Assembly (NCBI GenBank): GCA_021158185.1
Contig: JAGGVC010000134.1
Coordinates: 1 to 22,574, forward strand
Origin: a bacterium
Lineage (GTDB): Bacteria; 4484-113; JAGGVC01
DNA length: 22,574 nucleotides
Reading direction: 5' to 3'
The position numbers and the translations under genes were made by a program. Of this stretch, positions 926 through 22,012 are shown piece after piece; the stretch's first letter is position 1, and the number at the start of each line of letters is the position of its first letter. The notes under the pieces are model-generated. The model worked only from the letters and a program-made list of their open reading frames with translations, had not been told where the DNA came from and ran no database searches.

Positions 926-3900
926 TCATTCCTGCAAATCCTCAAGCCTTTCGAGGAATAACATGAGTTTCGGCGCAACTTCAGAATCGAGCTGAACGCC
1001 CAAATCCACAAGATCGTTTTCCTTCAACTCAGCCTTGCGGTCGAGAAGCGTTATCTTCTGAACCCAGGATGGTCGTCCGCTCCTGAATCTGAATCTGAAA
1101 GCATTCTTGTGTCGCATATACTCGACGGAAGAAATTCCGACACTTTCCGCCATCAACTTTATGGCAATAACGGCAAGCAGGTTTTCTACGGCCTCGGGCG
1201 GCTTTCCGAATCTGTCCTCAAGTTCGGAGCGAAAGTCATCAATCTCGGAAAGATTCAGACCTGCGATTCGTCTAAGGAGATCGAGCCTCAAGACCGAGTC
1301 CTCAATGTAATCGGGCGGAATGAATGCTGGAATGGGAACATCCACCACGCAGCCCGCTCTCTCTTCTTCGAATGCATCCAGCAGCGCGCCTTCATCGAAA
1401 TCGTCCAAATCGTCAAGCCCATATGCCCCTTCGCGCACGGCTTCGAACGAGTCGTGCAGGATTTCGAAGTAATAGTCGTAGCCGACATGCGCGGCAATCC
1501 CGCTCTGCTCGGTGCCGAAGATGTTCCCGGCGCCGCGCAGCCTCAGATCGCTCTGAGCGATTTCGTAGCCCGAGCCGAGGTATGCGTAGTTATAGATCGA
1601 GTGAAGCCGCCCCTGTGCATCCGGCGTGAGGCCGCGCTCCGGCTCATGGAAGAAGTACGCATACGCTTGCACATGACTCCGTCCGACGCGCCCTCGCAGC
1701 TGATGCATCTGAGCCAGTCCGAGATTTTCCGCCTTGTCAACGATGAGAGTATTCACATTCGGAATATCAAGCCCGTTTTCGATTATTGTGGTTGCAAGAA
1801 GGATGTGGAATGCGCCGATGGCGAACGTATTCATTATTTCTTCGAGAGCGTCTTCCTTCATCTGTCCGTGAGCGATTGTGATCTTGGCTTCTGGAACGAG
1901 ATGTTCGAGTTCGGCTTTGAAAAGCTCGATGTCCTCGACGCGGTTGTGGAGGAAATAAATCTGTCCGCCGCGCCCTATCTCGCGTAGGACCGCGTCGCGC
2001 GCGATCTGTCTGTCGTATTCACCGACGTATGTCCTGACCGGCTTACGATCTACAGGCGGTGTTTCGATGAGTGACACATCCCGCATTCCGACGAGCGACA
2101 TATGCAGCGTGCGCGGAATCGGCGTCGCAGTCAACGTCAGCGAATCCACGCCGGGAAATTTCATTTTGAGCCTTTCCTTCTGCTTTACACCGAACCGCTG
2201 CTCCTCGTCTATGACGAGAAGCCCGGGGCTTTTTGGCTTTACATCCTTCGAGAAAATCCTGTGCGTTCCGATAAGCACATCCACTTTTCCGGCGTTGAAA
2301 TCGGCAACGATCGCCTTTTGATCCCTGGGCGAAAGGAATCGCGACAGCATTTCAACCCTGAACGGGAATGCAGCGAACCTCCGCCTGAAGGTATGGTAAT
2401 GCTGGTCGGCCAGAATCGTTGTCGGGCACAATACGAGCACCTGCCTGTCGTTCTGACACGTGAGAAACGCTGTACGGAGCGCTATCTCGGTTTTGCCGAA
2501 GCCGACATCACCGCAGATAAGCCTTTCCATCGGGCGCGACGCCTCCATATCCTCGCGCACGGCGTCCCAAGCTTCCCTTTGATCCGGTGTGAGCTCGTAA
2601 GGAAATGCCGCACCGAATTCGTCGAGCCAGCCCTCGCTGTCGCAGTAGCTCATTCCCGACATATCAGCACGTTTTCTGTACAACTTGAACAACCTGAGTG
2701 CGAGCTTGATGGAGTCCTTGCGGATTTTCCGCCGGATCTTCTTCCAAGTGCGGCGTCCGAGGTTGTTCAGCTTCGGCGCATTTCCATCGAATCTGTATCT
2801 GCGAACGCGGTCGAGCTGGTCGACCGGAACGTACAGCTTGTCCTTGCCCTCATACTCGATTTCAACATAGCTTCGCCTGATACCACCGACTTCCTGATCG
2901 GAGAGCGCAACAAATCTACCGACACCATAATCAATGTGTACTACGTAATCACCGATCTTTATCTCGTCAACCGCTTTTATACCGCCCTTCTCGTATCGGC
3001 GCGGCCTCTTTGTAACCGTGTCCTCGATTTCCCCGAAGATCTCCGCGTCGGTTATCAGATGTCCGGCATCAGGGAAGGAAAAGCCCCCGGGCAGGATGGC
3101 CTTGTTAACGGCAGTGCCGGTTATGCCTTCTTCCTTCAGTTTTTCCTGCAAACGATCTGCAAACTGGCTTGTGATCCACACTTCGTTTGCCTGCTCTCCC
3201 ATCGCGGACAGCGTCGCGGTCAGGAATCCAAGTCTGAATTTTGCAGAGCTCGGCGTGCCCAGGCGCAGGTCGGCCGCGGGTACTTCGGAATGAGCGAAGT
3301 CGAAGCTGTTCGTCAGAATAAGCGACAGATCGCCGCCAGAAATCAGGCGATGATTCCTGAAATAATCATAGAGCTTCTCGTCCGGCGCGATGTAGTAATC
3401 ATCGAGCTGTGTGATAGAGAGCGCGCTTTTTCGCCATTCAAGGAATCGCTCCTCCCAAAATCTGAGATACGTCCGCAGTTCCCCTTCGACTAGCGCCTCG
3501 TCGTGAATCAGCAGCGAAGTGCCATTTGGGAAATAATCGAGGAGCGTATAGTCGCCTGAAAAGAGTGGCGAGTAGAATCCTGCGCGGTTGAAGTCGGTCC
3601 CGATTCGAATACGCTCGATGTCTTCCTCTATGACCTCGGAAAGTTTCTTAACCGATGCAGGCAGCCTTGAACCATATTCACCGACGTATTCGTCGAGTCT
3701 TGTTTTTACGAGATCCGCAGCGCGCATCGCGTCCTCGCCGTGCACCGCGCGCGCGCGCGCCGGGAGTATCACTGCTTCGCCTGCACCTTCAAAGCTGCGC
3801 TGGGTTTCCGGGTTAAACCTGCTTATTTCCTCGATCTCATCACCAAAGAAGTCGATCCTTATCGGAGATGCAGCACCCACAGGGAAAACATCCACGAGTC

Positions 3901-4540
3901 CGCCGCGGATCGAAAACTGTGCAGGTGCGAAAACGAGATTCGCGCGCTCGTAGCCGAAATCGGAAAGCCGCTCTGCAAGCTCGATGGTCGATATGCTTGT
4001 TCTGACGCCGAACCTTCCCGTATCCGACGCACCCGCGGCGCACAGCGCGAGCTTTGCATCTCTCACCGTTTCAGGATCGGGCAGCCGTCTGAAGATCGCA
4101 GCGGGCGTTGTGAATATCACGCATACATGTTCCCTGAGCATCAGGTCGAGTGCGAGCCGCCTTTGTGCGGTCGTTTCGATATCAGGGATTGCAAAATCGA
4201 ATATGTTTGAGGGCTCGAAATCGGGATAAAGGAGGAAATCATCGTCGCGCTCGTACTTATCCGTAAGAAGACGCCATGCCGTAATAACATGTGCGCGCGT
4301 ACTCTCGGCCTGCCTCCCGGATTCGCACAAAACGATCAGCGGGCGCGTTTTCGCGCGCGCGAACATATACGCGATAAGGAAATGTCGCGCGGATCCGCGC
4401 ACGTTTGCAGCCTGGAAAATACCCGCGCGCGTCTCCCGCGCCGCAAGCGTATCTTCAAAAAGGTTCCTCAGTCTGATAGCGAGACTATGCATCAGCCGTA
4501 ACATTACCTCACGCGTTTTTATTAAACAAGTATTTCGCAA
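926..4540 (-). CDS. mfd: Transcription-repair coupling factor Mfd
   Basis: The 1204-aa ORF has Walker A GDVGFGKT and a DEEQ box (LLVIDEEQRFGV), the superfamily-2 helicase core typical of Mfd/RecG. It also has an N-terminal UvrB-homology region and a C-terminal TRG-like region. The tracked start is TTG at 4540 with AAGGCGG upstream. Alternative ATG starts at MLRL/MHSL have poor SD spacing, so the start is uncertain. Stop is TGA at 926-928. Confidence 0.9.
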   Translation of the reverse strand: MRNTCLIKTREVMLRLMHSLAIRLRNLFEDTLAARETRAGIFQAANVRGSARHFLIAYMFARAKTRPLIVLCESGRQAESTRAHVITAWRLLTDKYERDDDFLLYPDFEPSNIFDFAIPDIETTAQRRLALDLMLREHVCVIFTTPAAIFRRLPDPETVRDAKLALCAAGASDTGRFGVRTSISTIELAERLSDFGYERANLVFAPAQFSIRGGLVDVFPVGAASPIRIDFFGDEIEEISRFNPETQRSFEGAGEAVILPARARAVHGEDAMRAADLVKTRLDEYVGEYGSRLPASVKKLSEVIEEDIERIRIGTDFNRAGFYSPLFSGDYTLLDYFPNGTSLLIHDEALVEGELRTYLRFWEERFLEWRKSALSITQLDDYYIAPDEKLYDYFRNHRLISGGDLSLILTNSFDFAHSEVPAADLRLGTPSSAKFRLGFLTATLSAMGEQANEVWITSQFADRLQEKLKEEGITGTAVNKAILPGGFSFPDAGHLITDAEIFGEIEDTVTKRPRRYEKGGIKAVDEIKIGDYVVHIDYGVGRFVALSDQEVGGIRRSYVEIEYEGKDKLYVPVDQLDRVRRYRFDGNAPKLNNLGRRTWKKIRRKIRKDSIKLALRLFKLYRKRADMSGMSYCDSEGWLDEFGAAFPYELTPDQREAWDAVREDMEASRPMERLICGDVGFGKTEIALRTAFLTCQNDRQVLVLCPTTILADQHYHTFRRRFAAFPFRVEMLSRFLSPRDQKAIVADFNAGKVDVLIGTHRIFSKDVKPKSPGLLVIDEEQRFGVKQKERLKMKFPGVDSLTLTATPIPRTLHMSLVGMRDVSLIETPPVDRKPVRTYVGEYDRQIARDAVLREIGRGGQIYFLHNRVEDIELFKAELEHLVPEAKITIAHGQMKEDALEEIMNTFAIGAFHILLATTIIENGLDIPNVNTLIVDKAENLGLAQMHQLRGRVGRSHVQAYAYFFHEPERGLTPDAQGRLHSIYNYAYLGSGYEIAQSDLRLRGAGNIFGTEQSGIAAHVGYDYYFEILHDSFEAVREGAYGLDDLDDFDEGALLDAFEEERAGCVVDVPIPAFIPPDYIEDSVLRLDLLRRIAGLNLSEIDDFRSELEDRFGKPPEAVENLLAVIAIKLMAESVGISSVEYMRHKNAFRFRFRSGRPSWVQKITLLDRKAELKENDLVDLGVQLDSEVAPKLMLFLERLEDLQE

Positions 4541-4627
4541 GCAGTCGTCCGCCTTGATCGTACAGCAACATCGCGTCTGCGTTGCGGTATCGGTATTGCG
4601 GGCACAAGGCGACTGCTTTCGGCTCAG

Positions 4628-4636
4628 TGCTATAAT
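4628..4636 (+). promoter_or_regulatory. Extended -10 promoter element (TGcTATAAT) for the DUF502 gene
   Basis: ggctcagTGcTATAAT at 4621-4636 lies about 95 nt upstream of ATG 4732. No good -35 is present. A near-identical 15-nt motif recurs upstream of glyA. Confidence 0.35.
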
Positions 4637-4731
4637 CCCGAATCCTGATGGGTTTTTGATCTTTCTCGATCATTTCCCAGATCATCCATCAGCTGATCGA
4701 ACATAAGCAGACATGGTTTCGAGGTGTGAAA

Positions 4732-5463
4732 ATGAAAGGCATATTAAAAAAGGTTACAACCTGGTTCATAAGCGGACTAATTACGATTCTGCCGCTCGCT
4801 CTCACGATCGGGCTTCTCGGATGGATATACACCAAAATAGTTTCGCTTTTCGGAAAGGACTCTGCGATAGGACGCATTCTCGTAAGGACAGCAGAAACTC
4901 ATAACCTTCCGTCCAGTCTGACGATCATATGCGTGTACCTGGCCATAATCGTTCTCATTATTCTTATAGGGGCGTTTGTCCATATTCGCGCGAGGAACCG
5001 CGTTTCCGAATGGATCAAGGGCCTGGTGAACCGCTTTCCTGTTATTAACAGCATCTACAATTCCGCAGAACAGGTAGTAGGCATTTTCGGTAAGACGCCC
5101 GGCGCTGAAGGACAAGGGGATGATCCCGCGCACGGAAGCAACATTGTACTTGTGCGGTTTGCAAACACGCTTATCCTGGGAATGCTGCCCTCGCAGGACG
5201 CTGTAGACATCGGCGGTGTGCCACACTACATGGTCTATTTCCCGTCGACCCCGGTGCCGATGAGCGGCTTCAACTACCTCGTTCCCGCGGACAGCGTCTT
5301 TATGACCGAGCTTAAGTTCGACGATCTCACAAAGGTGCTCGTATCGCTCGGAGCACTCGCGCCGCAGACACTCGGCGGAGCAATCGAACTCAAACCGGCA
5401 TTCAGCCCCGGCAACGCATCCGCCGACCCCGCCGCAATCGAACCCGATGGCGAACAACCGTAG
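4732..5463 (+). CDS. DUF502 (COG2928) family membrane protein
   Basis: ATG at 4732 with GAGG 7 nt upstream. The tracked ORF starts at an in-frame GTG at 4726. It has two N-terminal TM helices (FISGLITILPLALTIGLLGWIY; LAIIVLIILIGAF). Conserved DUF502-like blocks are VLVRFANTLILGMLPS and FPSTPVPMSGFNYLVP. It is transcribed divergently from mfd. Confidence 0.75.
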   Translation: MKGILKKVTTWFISGLITILPLALTIGLLGWIYTKIVSLFGKDSAIGRILVRTAETHNLPSSLTIICVYLAIIVLIILIGAFVHIRARNRVSEWIKGLVNRFPVINSIYNSAEQVVGIFGKTPGAEGQGDDPAHGSNIVLVRFANTLILGMLPSQDAVDIGGVPHYMVYFPSTPVPMSGFNYLVPADSVFMTELKFDDLTKVLVSLGALAPQTLGGAIELKPAFSPGNASADPAAIEPDGEQP

Positions 5464-11707: not shown

Positions 11708-11715
11708 GGAAAAAA

Positions 11716-11787
11716 TGGGCGTTACTGGATTCGAACCAGTGACTTCATACGTGTGAAGCATGCGCTCTGCCACTGAGCTAAACGCCC
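11716..11787 (-). tRNA. tRNA-Val (anticodon CAC)
   Basis: Reverse complement folds as a cloverleaf: acceptor GGGCGTT/AACGCCC, D-arm GCTC-AGTGGCA-GAGC, anticodon arm CATGC-TTCACAC-GTATG (U33, CAC, A37), T-arm ACTGG-TTCGAAT-CCAGT, discriminator A. No CCA is encoded, and the 3' end is followed by a T6 run. The tracked ORF 11630..11947(-) overlapping it is spurious. Confidence 0.85.
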
Positions 11788-11886
11788 ATACCGCCTCTGG
11801 TACATCGAAATTATACCATGGCTGAGCGGATCGAAAATGCCGAGCCGGCGTCATTCGAAACATGCGCCGCTCATTCCGTTGCAGGG

Positions 11887-15463: not shown

Positions 15464-16651
15464 TCAATCTCCGTATGAAGCACTTTGATTGGGTAAGGGC
15501 TTTATCTGCACAAACTTGGTAAACAAATCTCCTTCCGGAACGACCAGCCTGTCGGTGTTGAGATCATAGATGAGATTTCCACCTATAGCAAATCGGTCAT
15601 CGCCGAGGTTTGCCACATCGCCCATTTCCTGCTTTTCAGGCAAAACATGAATGGACATCCACTCATTGGTCCGCAGATCAAGAACCGCAAGCTTGTCTCC
15701 AAATCCGATTATCGCTACGGCCAGATTGCCGGTTCTGTCGAGGTCGCAAGTGCCGTTTGACAAAAATATCCCGTGCTGATCCAGGTATTCTCTCGGTGGT
15801 TGGGCAATTGCAAATTCTTCGATGGCGAGCTTTGGATGAATGTACACTTTTAGACCTGTTGTATCTGTGGGAGCGTTGGGAGTCCTAAGGCGCGAAGAGC
15901 TGACAGGAGGAGCCATAACGAGCATGATCAACGCTTGTTGTGAGGGTGAGTATACGATCGGCCCGAATAATCGCCTATCCTTCAAGCTATCGATAACCTC
16001 AAAGGAATCACGATCGACAATTGCTATTCCTTCAAACAACCGGATAACGAGCAGATTCCCGCGCTGGCCGCTTATCATTGCCATTACGCTGCCCCATCCG
16101 CCACCGTCATAGGGCAGGGTCAGGCTTTCTCGATATTCCGGGTGTTCAAGAGAGAGCCTCATCAGTTCACTTTCAGTCAGCGAATACTTTAGTAGAACGT
16201 AAAGCCATTTGTCATCCGCAATCACGTTAAAAGGGGAAGGCGGCTTGTCCCCTAGGTCGATTACAAGCGCTTCCTCTGACGGATTAAGCGGGTCAATACG
16301 AACGAGCTTATTCCCCGTAAAATCGAATCGTGAAAGAGGATACCAGATATACCCGTCTGCGGTCACAGCAAAGTCGAACACGGCGGCGAATGAATCGTCG
16401 GTTTCCGGCAAGCGGCAAAAAACCGGTTCGGATCGACCATCCTCGAAAATGGCAAGCGTATGCCACGCGATGCCCACCCAATGCTGGGCCGCTTTGTCTC
16501 CGGGCAATGCTCCCTGCAAGTTGTTGCCGACAATTTCTTTATTTGTCCGATTAGGCTGCCAGCAACTTAACAGCGCGATGGGTGCAAGCAACAACAAAAT
16601 CAAAAACTGGCGTGTGCTTGCCAAATATGCCCTTTTAACTATTCGCTGCAT
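15464..16651 (-). CDS. Hypothetical lipoprotein (395 aa), possibly beta-propeller-like
   Basis: Start ATG at 16651..16649 shares one nucleotide with the TGA stop (16653..16651) of the upstream gene (TGATG coupling). The tracked ORF extends to 16717 through an upstream in-frame start with no signal peptide. From this ATG the signal peptide is MQRIVKRAYLASTRQFLILLLLAPIALLSC with a lipobox. No recognised family. Confidence 0.6.
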   Translation of the reverse strand: MQRIVKRAYLASTRQFLILLLLAPIALLSCWQPNRTNKEIVGNNLQGALPGDKAAQHWVGIAWHTLAIFEDGRSEPVFCRLPETDDSFAAVFDFAVTADGYIWYPLSRFDFTGNKLVRIDPLNPSEEALVIDLGDKPPSPFNVIADDKWLYVLLKYSLTESELMRLSLEHPEYRESLTLPYDGGGWGSVMAMISGQRGNLLVIRLFEGIAIVDRDSFEVIDSLKDRRLFGPIVYSPSQQALIMLVMAPPVSSSRLRTPNAPTDTTGLKVYIHPKLAIEEFAIAQPPREYLDQHGIFLSNGTCDLDRTGNLAVAIIGFGDKLAVLDLRTNEWMSIHVLPEKQEMGDVANLGDDRFAIGGNLIYDLNTDRLVVPEGDLFTKFVQIKPLPNQSASYGD

Positions 16652-18390
16652 CAATAATCCCACCACCACCACAAGTAGCTCCACTGATACAAGTATATGT
16701 CCCCTGGCGTCACCCAAAATCCACCGTCCACATCTATATCTTCAGAATACCAGTACGGGTTGAAATATGCTCCACCCCACCATCCGACCCACGCAAGTTG
16801 AGAGCAGTAATGCTCGTTAAAATCATCCTTTTGCACACCTAAATTGTATGTCTGGCCTACAGTCCAATCGAAAAAGGTCATTAGCTGGTCAAGTACACCT
16901 GGACAAATCATTTGATCAGCGTGGTATATCCAAATTTCCCAAGTGCACCTAATAGCCCGAATATCCCGGTTGTAGACCCAGTTTCTTGCATATGGTATTC
17001 GCTGCACACCTTGTCCAAAGCCGATTGCTTCGACCGTTTCCGCATAGGTCCAGTACTGTGAATACGTGTCCGTGGCTACAATACCGGTATGGTGCCAACC
17101 GTATGGCCACAACCACTCAGGGACCCATGTGAGTGGATTTTCGAAGTTCTGTTCGTAATTCGCCGTCAAAATGTCTCCACGAAAGAAACATTGAGGAAAT
17201 GCGCTGTAATTGGTTGGGCCAACCGGGTTGGGCGAGTTACCTCCGTACGGATAATACTGGCTCGGAAGCCTGCCAGCGAAGTAGTCCTCAAAGAACTTTT
17301 TCCACCAATTTGGAAGCCAGAACGATGGCTCACGTTCGAGCAAGGGAGTCATGGGCTCGCTGCTTCCAGCTTCACGCCGAAACTTGTTTTCAATGGCTTG
17401 CGCTTTTATGTCGTATATAGGTTGCTCAAGATCAATGCCTTCCAAATCTAGAGGGTTTATATTCCAATCCTCGATATCCAGAATATATGCATCGTAATAG
17501 ACCTGTCCCGTAGGCATTGCAATGCAGGGGTTCACGCTCTCACCAAGGATTGTTTCTGCCACTTCTGGAGTCAACCAGACCGCTGTACCAGGCTCCTCGT
17601 GAGAGATGGGCTCGCCCCTCATGTAGTATGACCCGTCGGACTTTTGCAGCAGGGGCACCATTTGGTTTGCTAGGTCTTCTCGAGAGTGAAAGCTGGAGCT
17701 TTCAATATCAATAAATTCTCCCGAGACGGTTGACGTCGTAATCACCAGTTCACCCTCGAACCCTACTGCGGCGACCAGATGGCGCTCCGACTCGCCGATA
17801 ACATCGGGGGAATCCTCAATTACGCTTGGAAGAAGGAAATATACTGTTCGTCTCCCGGTTTCCGGATCGGTGAAAGTTGTGTCAATCTGTTCATTCGCCT
17901 GTTGGGGAGATATAACGTGGTAGCCAAGCAAAAGCTCAAGCTGATTCTGCTGTTCATCCAGCGCTTGATAAGCAACCTCAAATTCAGGGTCAGGCAACTG
18001 ATGCCCTTGATCATCTTCATAGATGTACTCGAAGTAACCGATCACGTATCCGGTGTTGCCTTGGAATTCAACAACATGGGAACTACCGAATGTTAAGTCT
18101 GTAAGGCAGGGCGTGAATATCTCGGTCACGGGATCCAGAATTAAAGGCAGTTCAGTGTAATAAAGGCCCACGATCCAAGGCGAATACACACTCACGGTTC
18201 CTCCATTGTACTCGACCTCGACGACAGGCGTATCACTAAGGCCGCCAGCTAGCGGGTACTCCCCTCCTCCAATTCCCGGATCAAAACCGGGGCTGTTACT
18301 GGGCAATCTAAAAGGACCAAGTTGAGTCCTGTCAACTGGTACCGACCCGTCGCGTTCCAAGTCACCGGTTTGCGGTTTGTCCGGATTCAA
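16651..18390 (-). CDS. Protein with C-terminal YiiX/YaeF-like permuted papain-fold (C92, NlpC/P60 superfamily) domain and an acidic N-terminal region of unknown function; 5' end unresolved
   Basis: The C-terminus carries WHHTGIV (His block) about 95 residues before EHYCSQLAWVGWW (Cys block). This matches the permuted His...Cys order and the SHTGM / YCSEVVW motifs of E. coli YiiX. The C-terminal tail is W/Y-rich (YLYQWSYLWWWWDY). The tracked start is TTG 18390, but the frame stays open to 18537 and the only strong SD+ATG (18536) is in the +1 frame. Confidence 0.6.
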   Translation of the reverse strand: MNPDKPQTGDLERDGSVPVDRTQLGPFRLPSNSPGFDPGIGGGEYPLAGGLSDTPVVEVEYNGGTVSVYSPWIVGLYYTELPLILDPVTEIFTPCLTDLTFGSSHVVEFQGNTGYVIGYFEYIYEDDQGHQLPDPEFEVAYQALDEQQNQLELLLGYHVISPQQANEQIDTTFTDPETGRRTVYFLLPSVIEDSPDVIGESERHLVAAVGFEGELVITTSTVSGEFIDIESSSFHSREDLANQMVPLLQKSDGSYYMRGEPISHEEPGTAVWLTPEVAETILGESVNPCIAMPTGQVYYDAYILDIEDWNINPLDLEGIDLEQPIYDIKAQAIENKFRREAGSSEPMTPLLEREPSFWLPNWWKKFFEDYFAGRLPSQYYPYGGNSPNPVGPTNYSAFPQCFFRGDILTANYEQNFENPLTWVPEWLWPYGWHHTGIVATDTYSQYWTYAETVEAIGFGQGVQRIPYARNWVYNRDIRAIRCTWEIWIYHADQMICPGVLDQLMTFFDWTVGQTYNLGVQKDDFNEHYCSQLAWVGWWGGAYFNPYWYSEDIDVDGGFWVTPGDIYLYQWSYLWWWWDY

Positions 18391-19864: not shown

Positions 19865-19917
19865 CGGCGGGTTCAGAAGGGCGACCAGGTCTCATTTTCA
19901 ATTACGCTCCATATTTA

Positions 19918-19941
19918 CCCCGCATTTGCGGGGTTTTTTTT
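19918..19941 (+). terminator. Rho-independent terminator
   Basis: CCCCGCA-ttt-TGCGGGG stem-loop followed by T8 on the plus strand. Confidence 0.7.
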
Positions 19942-20127
19942 CGCTGATGCTCAAACCTGCCTGACTCAATCTTCTCCAGGAAAATTATTCTGTGGAAAAG
20001 CCCGAAAGGCGCGATATTGCAGAAGAAACGGTTCACAGCCTGCGCGGATGCCAGGACGTAATTTGAAGTGAATTCGGTGTTCGAAAATAACTGCCAGCCG
20101 GTTTGCAGAATAAGTTATAATAAACTT

Positions 20128-20221
20128 GCGGCGGTTGATGGGGTCCGGTGGCCCCCGCGGTCTTCAAAACCGTTGGCGCGGGAGATCCCCGCGCGGGAGG
20201 TTCGACTCCTCCCTCCGCCGT
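20128..20221 (+). tRNA. selC: Candidate selenocysteine tRNA (tRNA-Sec, anticodon UCA), selC-like
   Basis: 6-bp D-stem GGGGTC/GGCCCC with 4-nt loop CGGT (20140-20155). Anticodon arm GCGGT-CUUCAAA-ACCGT has U33, UCA and A37 (20157-20173). A long variable arm forms a 7-bp stem (20176-20194). T-arm is GGAGG-TTCGACT-CCTCC (20196-20212). The anticodon loop, D-loop and GGTTCGACTCC T-arm are identical to E. coli selC as recalled. The acceptor is imperfect (GCGGCGG/CCGCCGT, 7 bp including G-U) and the acceptor-to-D linker is 4 nt, not 2. TATAAT at 20116-20121 places +1 at the predicted 5' end. Confidence 0.5.
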
Positions 20222-20223
20222 TA

Positions 20224-22012
20224 TTAGCTTGTCTTTCCGAAAACCTCTACCAGAAACTTTTCCATCCGCGTGTAGAAGTCGATCCTGTTTGCGGGATTAT
20301 GAAAACCATGCCCTTCACCGGGGTAAAGCACGTATTCAACGTCCGCGCCGGCCCCTTCAAGCGCCTCAGCCATCCTCCCGCCCTCGGATTCCTTAACTCG
20401 CGGGTCATTCGCTCCCTGCGCGATCAGCATCGGTATCCGCACGTCTGAAGCGAAATTGAGCGGACTTCTGCCTGCAAGAAACTGCACATCGGTTCTGTCC
20501 TCGTCGCTCCATTCCGATTCCGGTTTGAGCTCGCCCGCCATCTCGCCGTCCTCATACCTCGGAACGCGTTCAATCCTATATTCATTTTGTTTGATTCTGT
20601 GCGTGAAGTGTTGCGGAGACGAGCTGAGATGACTCACGAGATCCGAGACGCCGTATAGCGAAATTGCCCCCGCATACAGGTCTGGCGTGAAAGTCGCACC
20701 TGCAAACGCGGCGTATCCGCCGTAGCTTTCCCCGAATATGACGGTTTTTCCCGCCTCGGTTATGGCCTGCGACTCAGCCCACTTGACGGCATCGGTCAGA
20801 TCGTCCTGCATCTTGCCACCCCACTCGCGGTATCCCGCACTCAGAAAGTCCTTGCCATATCCCATCGAGCCGCGGTTGGCGAGCCACTGAGCCACCGGGT
20901 TGAATCCCCAGAAATCGCGCCCCATAGGACCGCCGTGCACGTTAAGAACCATCGGCCCCGGCCCTTGCCAGTCCAGGGGAAGCGTGAGATACCCGTGGAT
21001 TTCCAAACCGTCGCGCGCAGTAAAACTCACGGGCGTCATTCTTGCCAGCGGCAGTCCTTCAAGCGCCGTCGAATACACGAAAAGCCTCCTGTAAACCGAC
21101 GTTTTGCAGTCATAGATCCCGTAGGAAGCGGGCCCATCGTCCCGCGTAAACATGACAAGAATGTATTCGCCGTCCAACGACTGGTCGATGATATACATGT
21201 CGCCCCGTTCCGCATCGCTCAGTGCATCGATGATGTTTCTGTAGTCGTCCTCGATGGCGCGCCATTCGACCCTCTCTTTCAGGAAATTCGCCGCCACGAC
21301 TTCCCTTGTCCTTGGGTGTTGGGTGACGGCCAGGACATCGTATTGCGGGTCTTCCAGCAGCACGCACTCCTCTCCTGATGCAATGTTGTACTCGCAGAGC
21401 GCGCCGGCATTTCTGTTAATGCTGTCGACCAAGTAGAGCTTGTCGTTGTCCATTGAGAAGCCGATGATTCTGGTTGTTTGTGTATAGTCGGGCGGGATTG
21501 CGAAAAGCATCCGATATGGCTCCGATGTTCGTTCACGGAGATGTACTTCTGCGCCTCCGTCCGCAGTCACCGCAATGTAACCGCGTATATCGAGATTGTT
21601 GTCGATCAGCCAAGTCTGGATGTCCGTCCTTGACTCCTCTGCGAGCTTCATCTCGCCTGTCCGGATGTTTATTCGGTACAGGTCATGGACTCGCCGCTCC
21701 CGCCTCAGGGTCGAGAAGATAGAACTGGAAGTCCTCAGACCTGCCAGGGTCGCGTCTGAATAGTATCTTGCCGTTCATCGTCCAGGAGTAGTAAGGATCG
21801 ATATCGAGTTCGTTTTCATGCGTAAGCACACGAGGCTCGCCCCCATCAGTCGGCATTATCCACAGGTTTAGAACTCCCTCGTATGGTGCAAGGTACGCAA
21901 CAAGCTTTCCATCGGGGGAGATTGATGGGCATGCGCGGTAAGGCGCGCCTAAGAGAACTTCAAGAGGAATGATCTGTTTTTCTGTACCGGAAAGGTTCAA
22001 CATATTAATCAC
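20224..22012 (-). pseudogene. S9 family (prolyl oligopeptidase / dipeptidyl-aminopeptidase-like) serine peptidase, split by a frameshift near 21683-21725
   Basis: The N-terminal beta-propeller part (22012..21683) starts at GTG with GGAGG 8 nt upstream and contains SPDGKLVAYL. It ends in ...FYLLDPEAGAASP*. The C-terminal part (21651..20224) continues in another frame, which is open upstream as ...REREVHDLYRINIRTGEMKLAEE. It carries catalytic GESYGG (Ser) and GEGHGF (His). Deleting one G in the gaggcgggagcgg run would fuse them into a single peptidase of about 596 aa. Confidence 0.65.

Follow-up and report, generated by a model that had tools for sequence, protein, structure and literature searches.

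A selC gene of the minor 12-layer acceptor/T class in a deep-branching bacterial MAG

We analysed a stretch of 22,574 nt (hereafter the window) from an NCBI metagenome-assembled genome (MAG; locus tags J7K50_*). It carries a tRNA-Sec gene (selC, anticodon UCA) at positions 20130-20220 of the forward strand. The gene is most likely a functional member of the minor bacterial tRNA-Sec class with a 12-layer acceptor/T helix. We established the gene itself, its fold class, its homology to selC genes linked with other sel genes, and the conservation of its structure through compensatory change. Charging of the tRNA, its conversion and its delivery, as well as selA, selB and selD elsewhere in the genome, would be expected by analogy with known systems. 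Apart from its sixth layer, which holds a U•U (or, following a UU bulge, a G•U), the window selC has no individual features.

Identity, ends and arms of the tRNA

The original prediction had placed a probable selC for tRNA-Sec (UCA) here and had named ARAGORN as a check. ARAGORN returned tRNA-SeC (tca) at 20129..20221, and the Rfam model RF01852 (tRNA-Sec) matched 20130..20219 with 70.7 bits (gathering threshold 47, E = 6.5e-13), confirming the call. This score falls inside the spread of 15 comparison selC genes (67.9-76.4). A degenerate pattern combining the D loop, the anticodon arm and the T arm had one match in the window and none in 100 shuffles. The gene and its surroundings comprise the following features, where A2 is an alignment of 14 sequences (the window tRNA and 13 relatives):

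19917..19934, + strand: terminator-like hairpin with a T run, at the end of the upstream GNAT gene (window scan)
20116..20121, + strand: -10-like hexamer TATAAT, 8 nt before G20130 (sequence)
20130..20220, + strand: tRNA-Sec (selC), from G1 to the discriminator G73, 91 nt (ARAGORN, RF01852, class model)
20130..20137, + strand: 5' acceptor strand GGCGG-U-UG, with five Watson-Crick pairs, U20135 and U20136 (bulge or U•U), and G20137 (alignment A2, pair counts)
20138..20139, + strand: 2-nt linker A8 U9 (columns 9-10 of A2, invariant in 14/14 class members)
20140..20155, + strand: D arm, 6-bp stem GGGGUC/GGCCCC and 4-nt loop CGGU (sequence, MFE fold)
20156..20175, + strand: anticodon arm, 5-bp stem, loop CUUCAAA at 20162-20168, anticodon UCA at 20164-20166 (sequence, ARAGORN, A2)
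20176..20194, + strand: long variable arm, 7-bp stem 20176-20182/20188-20194 and 5-nt loop (MFE fold, A2)
20195..20213, + strand: T arm, 5-bp stem G20196-G20200/C20208-C20212 and loop UUCGACU (folds, A2)
20213..20219, + strand: 3' acceptor strand CUCCGCC, 7 nt from the 5-bp T stem to G73
20220, + strand: discriminator G73, aligned with a G that is invariant in all class members

Both ends were set by homology and by a class-specific model, with G20130 as the 5' end and G20220 as the discriminator. The aligned G is position 73 in the class because the relative in Yokenella (L042) encodes CCA right after it. The window selC encodes no CCA, and G20220 is followed by GTTA. The surplus base that ARAGORN included at either end corresponds to a fortuitous flanking pair, C20129-G20220; the start at 20128 used in the original prediction adds a further G•U beyond it. 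Since one flanking base was added at each end, the ARAGORN coordinates are offset and its anticodon stands at position 36 in the window. The same position was given for 6/8 of the relatives run that have 7 nt on the 3' side, and position 35 for two canonical controls. This observation concerns the window (20129-20221), L012, L026, L035, L042, L074, L123 and L124.

The arms that the original prediction had described (a 6-bp D stem with a CGGT loop, a CUUCAAA loop, a 7-bp variable arm and a T arm) were all recovered in the sequence and in the fold. The D stem pairs 20140-20145 with 20150-20155, and this helix (helix 2) is 100% paired across the class in A2. A D arm with a 6-bp stem and a 4-nt loop is a SelA recognition feature in bacteria (PMC7609411). 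The anticodon stem is closed by an extra pair, C20156-G20175, with one U bulged (20173 or 20174, position 43a). Helix 3, the anticodon helix, is likewise 100% paired in A2, and 27:46 is C-G or U-G in all members. A bulge at 43a in the anticodon stem is often found in the 12-bp tRNA-Sec class (PMC5330540).

In the variable arm (helix 4), 4/5 pairs in A2 have changed on both sides. A long variable arm together with G73 is a SerRS identity element. The T arm carries GGTTCGACTCC, and G20195-C20213 could form a sixth T-stem pair. Besides U20136/U20214, all stems of the window tRNA are fully paired, and every loop is at consensus.

Acceptor geometry and relatives of the window gene

The acceptor is irregular and departs from the bacterial 8/5 rule, as originally predicted: to align it, RF01852 must drop a position from both acceptor strands, and two pairs are flagged as non-standard. 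The stretch from G20130 up to the D stem is 10 nt long, i.e. the usual 8 + 2 of bacterial tRNA-Sec. On the 3' side, only 7 nt separate the T stem from G73 (8 in canonical bacterial tRNA-Sec), and the strand running from the T loop up to C20219, the last acceptor base (position 72), has 12 nt, compared with 13 in E. coli selC. The window tRNA, with 12 nt only, thus lacks the 13-bp acceptor + T helix of the bacterial 8/5 fold, and its surplus nucleotide is on the 5' side of the acceptor (10 nt before the D stem vs 7 nt on the 3' side).

Santesmasses, Mariotti & Guigo 2017 described 47 bacterial tRNA-Sec with a 12-bp acceptor/T stem (PMC5330540). This class, with a '7/5 fold', has a bulged nucleotide (3a, 4a or 5a) or an extra linker nucleotide, 7a, and is usually found in selABC operons (PMC5330540). 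The consulted part of the Secmarker supplement holds canonical sequences only, with members of the 12-bp class absent.

Relatives were sought with a purine/pyrimidine-tolerant pattern in one genome per GTDB species, and at least 119 loci matched. Among the GTDB matches listed, 103/119 had the canonical 10-nt/8-nt layout and a minority had 7 nt on the 3' side, with the 10-nt/7-nt layout of the window in 11/119. Nine of these 11 relatives were from Spirochaetota (one of them a Leptospira MAG), and the others were from an uncultured bacterium (L012) and from Yokenella regensburgei (L042). Two further L012-type genes, both from uncultured bacteria (L123 and L124), came from a stricter scan of metagenome contigs; with the D-arm/T-arm pattern, the metagenome scan returned these two L012-type genes only and no closer relative of the window tRNA. 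In total, at least 13 public tRNAs have the 10/7 layout (nine from Spirochaetota, one from Yokenella and three from uncultured bacteria). All relatives except Yokenella read GGAAG-A-GG-AU ... CCCTTCC-G, the Yokenella gene reads GGAAG-U-UG-AU ... CGCTTCC-GCCA, and the window reads GGCGG-U-UG-AU ... CTCCGCC-G, so that the 5' acceptor layout GGCGG-U-UG equals that of GGAAG-A-GG in the relatives. The irregularity noted in the original prediction was therefore real, but it is not peculiar to this gene, since the published 12-bp class and 13 relatives match it.

The sel neighbourhood was checked at four loci (L027, L111, L042 and L074). In two Spirochaetota (L027 and L111), selA (TIGR00474, 484 and 480 bits, respectively) and selB (TIGR00475, 304 and 315 bits) come directly after the tRNA. 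In Yokenella, selB follows the tRNA (289 bits), and at L074, which has a related 11/7 variant, selD stands directly after the tRNA (376 bits). Because these tRNAs adjoin selA, selB or selD, the 10/7 geometry belongs to genuine selC genes. In L012, L123 and L124, selC stands apart from selA and selB.

Several further observations were made at these loci. The 11/7 variant (L066 1048-1139 and L074 3050-3140) has 11 nt ahead of the D stem and a 3' strand of 7 nt; its hosts are Phycisphaerales and Chthoniobacterales MAGs, and its sequence reads GGAGAGU.../CCTCTCC. In Yokenella regensburgei ATCC 49455 (L042 1402-4036), an Rfam SECIS_4 element (60.7 bits) at the end of an ORF stands immediately before the 12-layer selC, and selB immediately after it; the whole resembles a second Sec module that is compact and may have been acquired. 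A conserved pair of ORFs of 542 aa and ~385 aa stands upstream of selC in L012 (2990-7999), L123 (1-5244) and L124 (463-4236); in L012, and only there, it was identified as bshC + bshA, genes of bacillithiol synthesis. The L012 tRNA also directly borders a Xer-like tyrosine recombinase, which fits selC as an integration site. For the window tRNA, no second copy of its 3' end (att-site remnant) was found in the window.

Three pairing registers were compared on A2 by counts of standard pairs. With a 7/5 fold and a bulge after pair 5, 99.7% of 348 cells were standard and the acceptor helix was 98.8% paired; the sole non-standard cell of the 348 was U20136•U20214 of the window. In this register, 10 pairs had changed on both sides, and the shuffle and slid controls came nowhere near. 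The 8/4 register gave 96.3% standard cells and an acceptor helix only 86.5% paired, and was dropped as the best description. The 6/6 register (5 bp, a 2-nt bulge, one pair and a 6-bp T stem) gave 99.7% and 98.6%, respectively; here the window is wholly paired, with G20137•U20214, and the exception is Yokenella. Thermodynamic prediction prefers a 5/6 division of the 12-bp branch: the minimum free energy (MFE) folds that ViennaRNA gave for the window, L012 and Leptospira had one topology, a 5-bp acceptor and a 6-bp T stem. Taking G20130 as +1, the window stem reads either as 5 bp, one bulged U, the U•U and a G-C, or as 5 bp, a UU bulge and a G•U that stacks on the 6-bp T stem. Because G68 and C86 of A2 are invariant, the exact register stays ambiguous for the entire class. 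What is constant across the class, as judged from the aligned sequences, is the 12-layer helix.

Two further details of the original prediction depend on this choice of ends and register. The mismatches it reported at positions 7-8 arose from the start at 20128 and the forced 8/5 frame. Its 4-nt linker between acceptor and D stem is, with G20130 as +1, the invariant AU dinucleotide, and a linker of 4 nt corresponds to the 6/6 register. Forcing the 8/5 frame on the 12-layer class misplaces both ends and creates spurious mismatches.

A class covariance model (R1), built from the 13 relatives with the window excluded, matched the window at exactly 20130..20220, full length, with 89.9 bits. Training members scored 96-116 and the other tRNA-Sec loci searched at most 83.5, so that the window was the best match outside the training set and scored above every canonical tRNA-Sec tested. 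The nearest relative among those found was L012, from which the window differs at seven stem pairs. Five of the seven are compensated on both sides (3:70, C-G vs A-U; 4:69, G-C vs A-U; 32:40; and two in the variable arm). Of the other two, one still pairs (C-G vs U-G), and the reading of the other as U•U or G•U depends on the register. The compensatory changes, together with normal Rfam and class-model scores, argue against a decaying copy, an option that the original prediction had raised and that is now disfavoured.

In A2, the D arm of the window is the same as that of the Spirochaetota L035, L038 and L111, and its anticodon arm is shared with the aligned spirochaete selC genes. The D and anticodon arms differ little or not at all among Spirochaetota, a gammaproteobacterium and two unclassified lineages, and the acceptor and variable arms covary. 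This combination suggests horizontal spread of this selC type.

Promoter and genomic context

The TATAAT hexamer has no -35 partner, and a scan for two-hexamer sigma-70 promoters gave no match here. Its distance of 8 nt from G20130 makes it plausible that transcription starts at the mature 5' end or slightly ahead of it. The original prediction had taken the hexamer to set +1 at the 5' end of the tRNA; the hexamer was confirmed, but the end then assumed, 20128, lies 2 nt too far out, and G20130 takes its place. In L012, L123 and L124, TTGATT and TATAAT or TATACT, 17 nt apart, stand 6 nt before G1. The terminator-like hairpin at 19917..19934 marks the upstream limit of the selC transcription unit.

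The window encodes mfd, a DUF502 gene, a GntR regulator, an SPFH protein, a hybrid histidine kinase, an acyl-CoA dehydrogenase, tRNA-Val, glyA, an aminotransferase, two orphan proteins, a GNAT acetyltransferase and a frameshifted S9 peptidase. selC lies between the GNAT gene and the convergent S9 peptidase gene downstream, with no selA or selB adjacent. A search for selA, selB, selD and SECIS elements found none within ~42 kb (the window and ~19 kb of flank). The flank extended 9 kb past the right end and 10 kb past the left end (via the mfd ATG at 4504), and neither sel genes nor any obvious selenoprotein gene were found in it. A selC standing apart from selAB is common, e.g. in E. coli. Neither an Rfam SECIS nor a credible UGA-interrupted gene was found in the window, in agreement with the original prediction that no selenoprotein or SECIS was evident there. 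Each of the TGA-interrupted ORFs inspected in the window either overlapped a real gene in another frame or was the frameshifted peptidase.

A 66-kb contig from JGI sample 3300016457 contains the window sequence too, and other contigs of that sample have an identical tRNA. The Mfd encoded in the window has three metagenomic homologues that are 59-61% identical, and all others are at most 48% identical, which sets the organism apart in sequence space. The best matches of named homologues were scattered over Planctomycetota and Ca. Electryoneota (FCB group), among others.

Searches for an orthologous selC were made through neighbouring genes. By S9 peptidase synteny, the best homologue was ≤48% identical and its locus (L125) had no tRNA. 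Through Mfd, the locus of a 59%-identical relative (L126) had no selC, and neither had the loci of homologues of an orphan protein of ~579 aa (L127-L129). Between L126 (5017-9281) and the window (926-5460), the divergent DUF502-mfd pair is the only synteny shared, so gene order appears poorly conserved in the clade.

Other features of the window were recorded as well. The S9 peptidase gene (20224-22012, - strand) is split by a frameshift into a 109-aa N-terminal ORF (21683-22012) and a 475-aa ORF (20224-21651), and its homologues are single-piece proteins of ~640 aa. An IS1595 transposase fragment lies just past the window end, and contigs from the same sample disagree in their gene calls in the peptidase region (L001 8951-9969; L003 9633-9969). 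The two orphan proteins, of ~579 aa and ~417 aa, are encoded by consecutive genes (15464-18390, - strand) and have no Pfam or NCBIfam match. A search of 5.8 billion clusters gave the ~579-aa protein just three homologues (49-53% identity), and one of their loci (L127) comes from the same metagenome and carries hypC + hypD. The acyl-CoA dehydrogenase gene and glyA flank an ordinary tRNA-Val(CAC) gene (11715-11788, - strand, 69.9 bits).

Likely function, alternatives and known systems

The steps by which the tRNA would act are taken from the established bacterial pathway. selC would be transcribed alone from a weak, -10-only promoter, and CCA would be added post-transcriptionally. SelA would recognise the D arm by its 6-bp stem and 4-nt loop and turn Ser into Sec. 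A SelB adapted to the 12-layer helix would then bring the tRNA to UGA codons with a following SECIS hairpin. That a 12-layer tRNA-Sec would work with SelB is suggested by the operon context in the literature.

Compared with the canonical E. coli-type selC (8/5, 13 bp), the window gene has the same UCA in CUUCAAA, the 6-bp D stem with a 4-nt loop, the long variable arm, G73 and the GGUUCGAcUCC T loop, and it exceeds the RF01852 threshold, but its 3' acceptor strand is one nucleotide shorter (12 vs 13 nt). It is closest to the 12-bp class (PMC5330540), with D and anticodon arms nearly identical to those of the Spirochaetota and Yokenella members. It differs from them at 6:67, where a U•U (or, with a 2-nt bulge before it, a G•U) takes the place of the G-C or U•G of the relatives. 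It also lies outside any selABC operon, and its host is a deep-branching bacterium that is not among the taxa listed in 2017.

The lineage might have lost the Sec pathway and kept an orphan selC, intact yet unused and in early decay. The absence of sel genes and SECIS elements within ~42 kb and the missing -35 element would fit this, as would the change of U20136/U20214 on both sides without a Watson-Crick pair being regained; the frameshifted S9 peptidase and the IS1595 fragment nearby also mark the region as not pristine. However, we consider such a relic unlikely, given that every other stem is fully paired with the loops at consensus, that five pairs are compensated on both sides relative to L012, and that neither the Rfam score nor the class-model score falls outside what is normal. 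The separation from selAB is shared with the L012/L123/L124 lineage, and the U•U itself vanishes in the 6/6 register, becoming a G•U.

A tRNA outside the Sec pathway could look similar. Mukai et al. 2017 mentioned the minor 12-bp tRNA-Sec and defined its look-alikes, the allo-tRNAs and the selC* tRNA-Cys (PMC5389517). An allo-tRNA-like tRNA for Ser, or a selC*-like one for Cys, would act as a UGA suppressor via EF-Tu or a SelB paralogue. Known look-alikes have a 12-bp branch, a long variable arm, a long D stem and sometimes UCA (PMC5389517), and the window tRNA does not adjoin sel genes. The selC* tRNA-Cys in particular has a tRNA-Sec-like cloverleaf with a 12-bp branch, and UCA in some members, but its own features are U73, an 8/4 fold with the bulge A51a, and selB* (sometimes cysS*) downstream (PMC5389517). 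The window tRNA has G73 instead, and what lies downstream is the convergent peptidase, with no selB*, selB-like gene or cysS*. Allo-tRNAs (8/4 or 9/3; Mukai et al. 2017) share the 12-bp branch, the tRNA-Sec-like D arm, the long variable arm and also G73, features that together predict Ser identity. They mostly have sense anticodons and are often near toxin-antitoxin or transposon genes, whereas no toxin-antitoxin context was seen in the window and its tRNA groups by sequence with sel-linked selC genes. The 8/4 register of allo-tRNA and selC* also fits the acceptor worse than the 7/5 register with a bulge. Finally, the D arm is identical in L035, L038 and L111, of which L111, like L027, stands directly before selA/selB, and the aligned spirochaete selC genes have the same anticodon arm. 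We therefore regard a look-alike of either kind as very unlikely.

Given that no selA or selB lies within 42 kb, there is also a very slight chance that the 12-layer tRNA(UCA) lacks a SelA/SelB partner and is an EF-Tu-compatible opal suppressor that may insert Ser, or Sec without SECIS control. If so, it would amount to a naturally occurring equivalent of the allo-tRNA Sec systems made by engineering.

[quoted passage not shown] In the window, U6•U67 appears in the 7/5 numbering with a bulge and is register-dependent. Eukaryotic tRNA-Sec differs in its domain, its 9/4 fold and its partners (PSTK, SepSecS and eEFSec), and the resemblance is probably coincidental.

For the reading we prefer, a functional selC of the 12-layer class, the ARAGORN end offset and the forcing of the 8/5 frame matter for annotation pipelines and raise no new biological question. 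The class, whose geometry has itself been known since 2017, gains one lineage, together with a sixth-layer variant (U•U or G•U). For the organism, the window selC flags a Sec-decoding trait in a deep-branching bacterial MAG.
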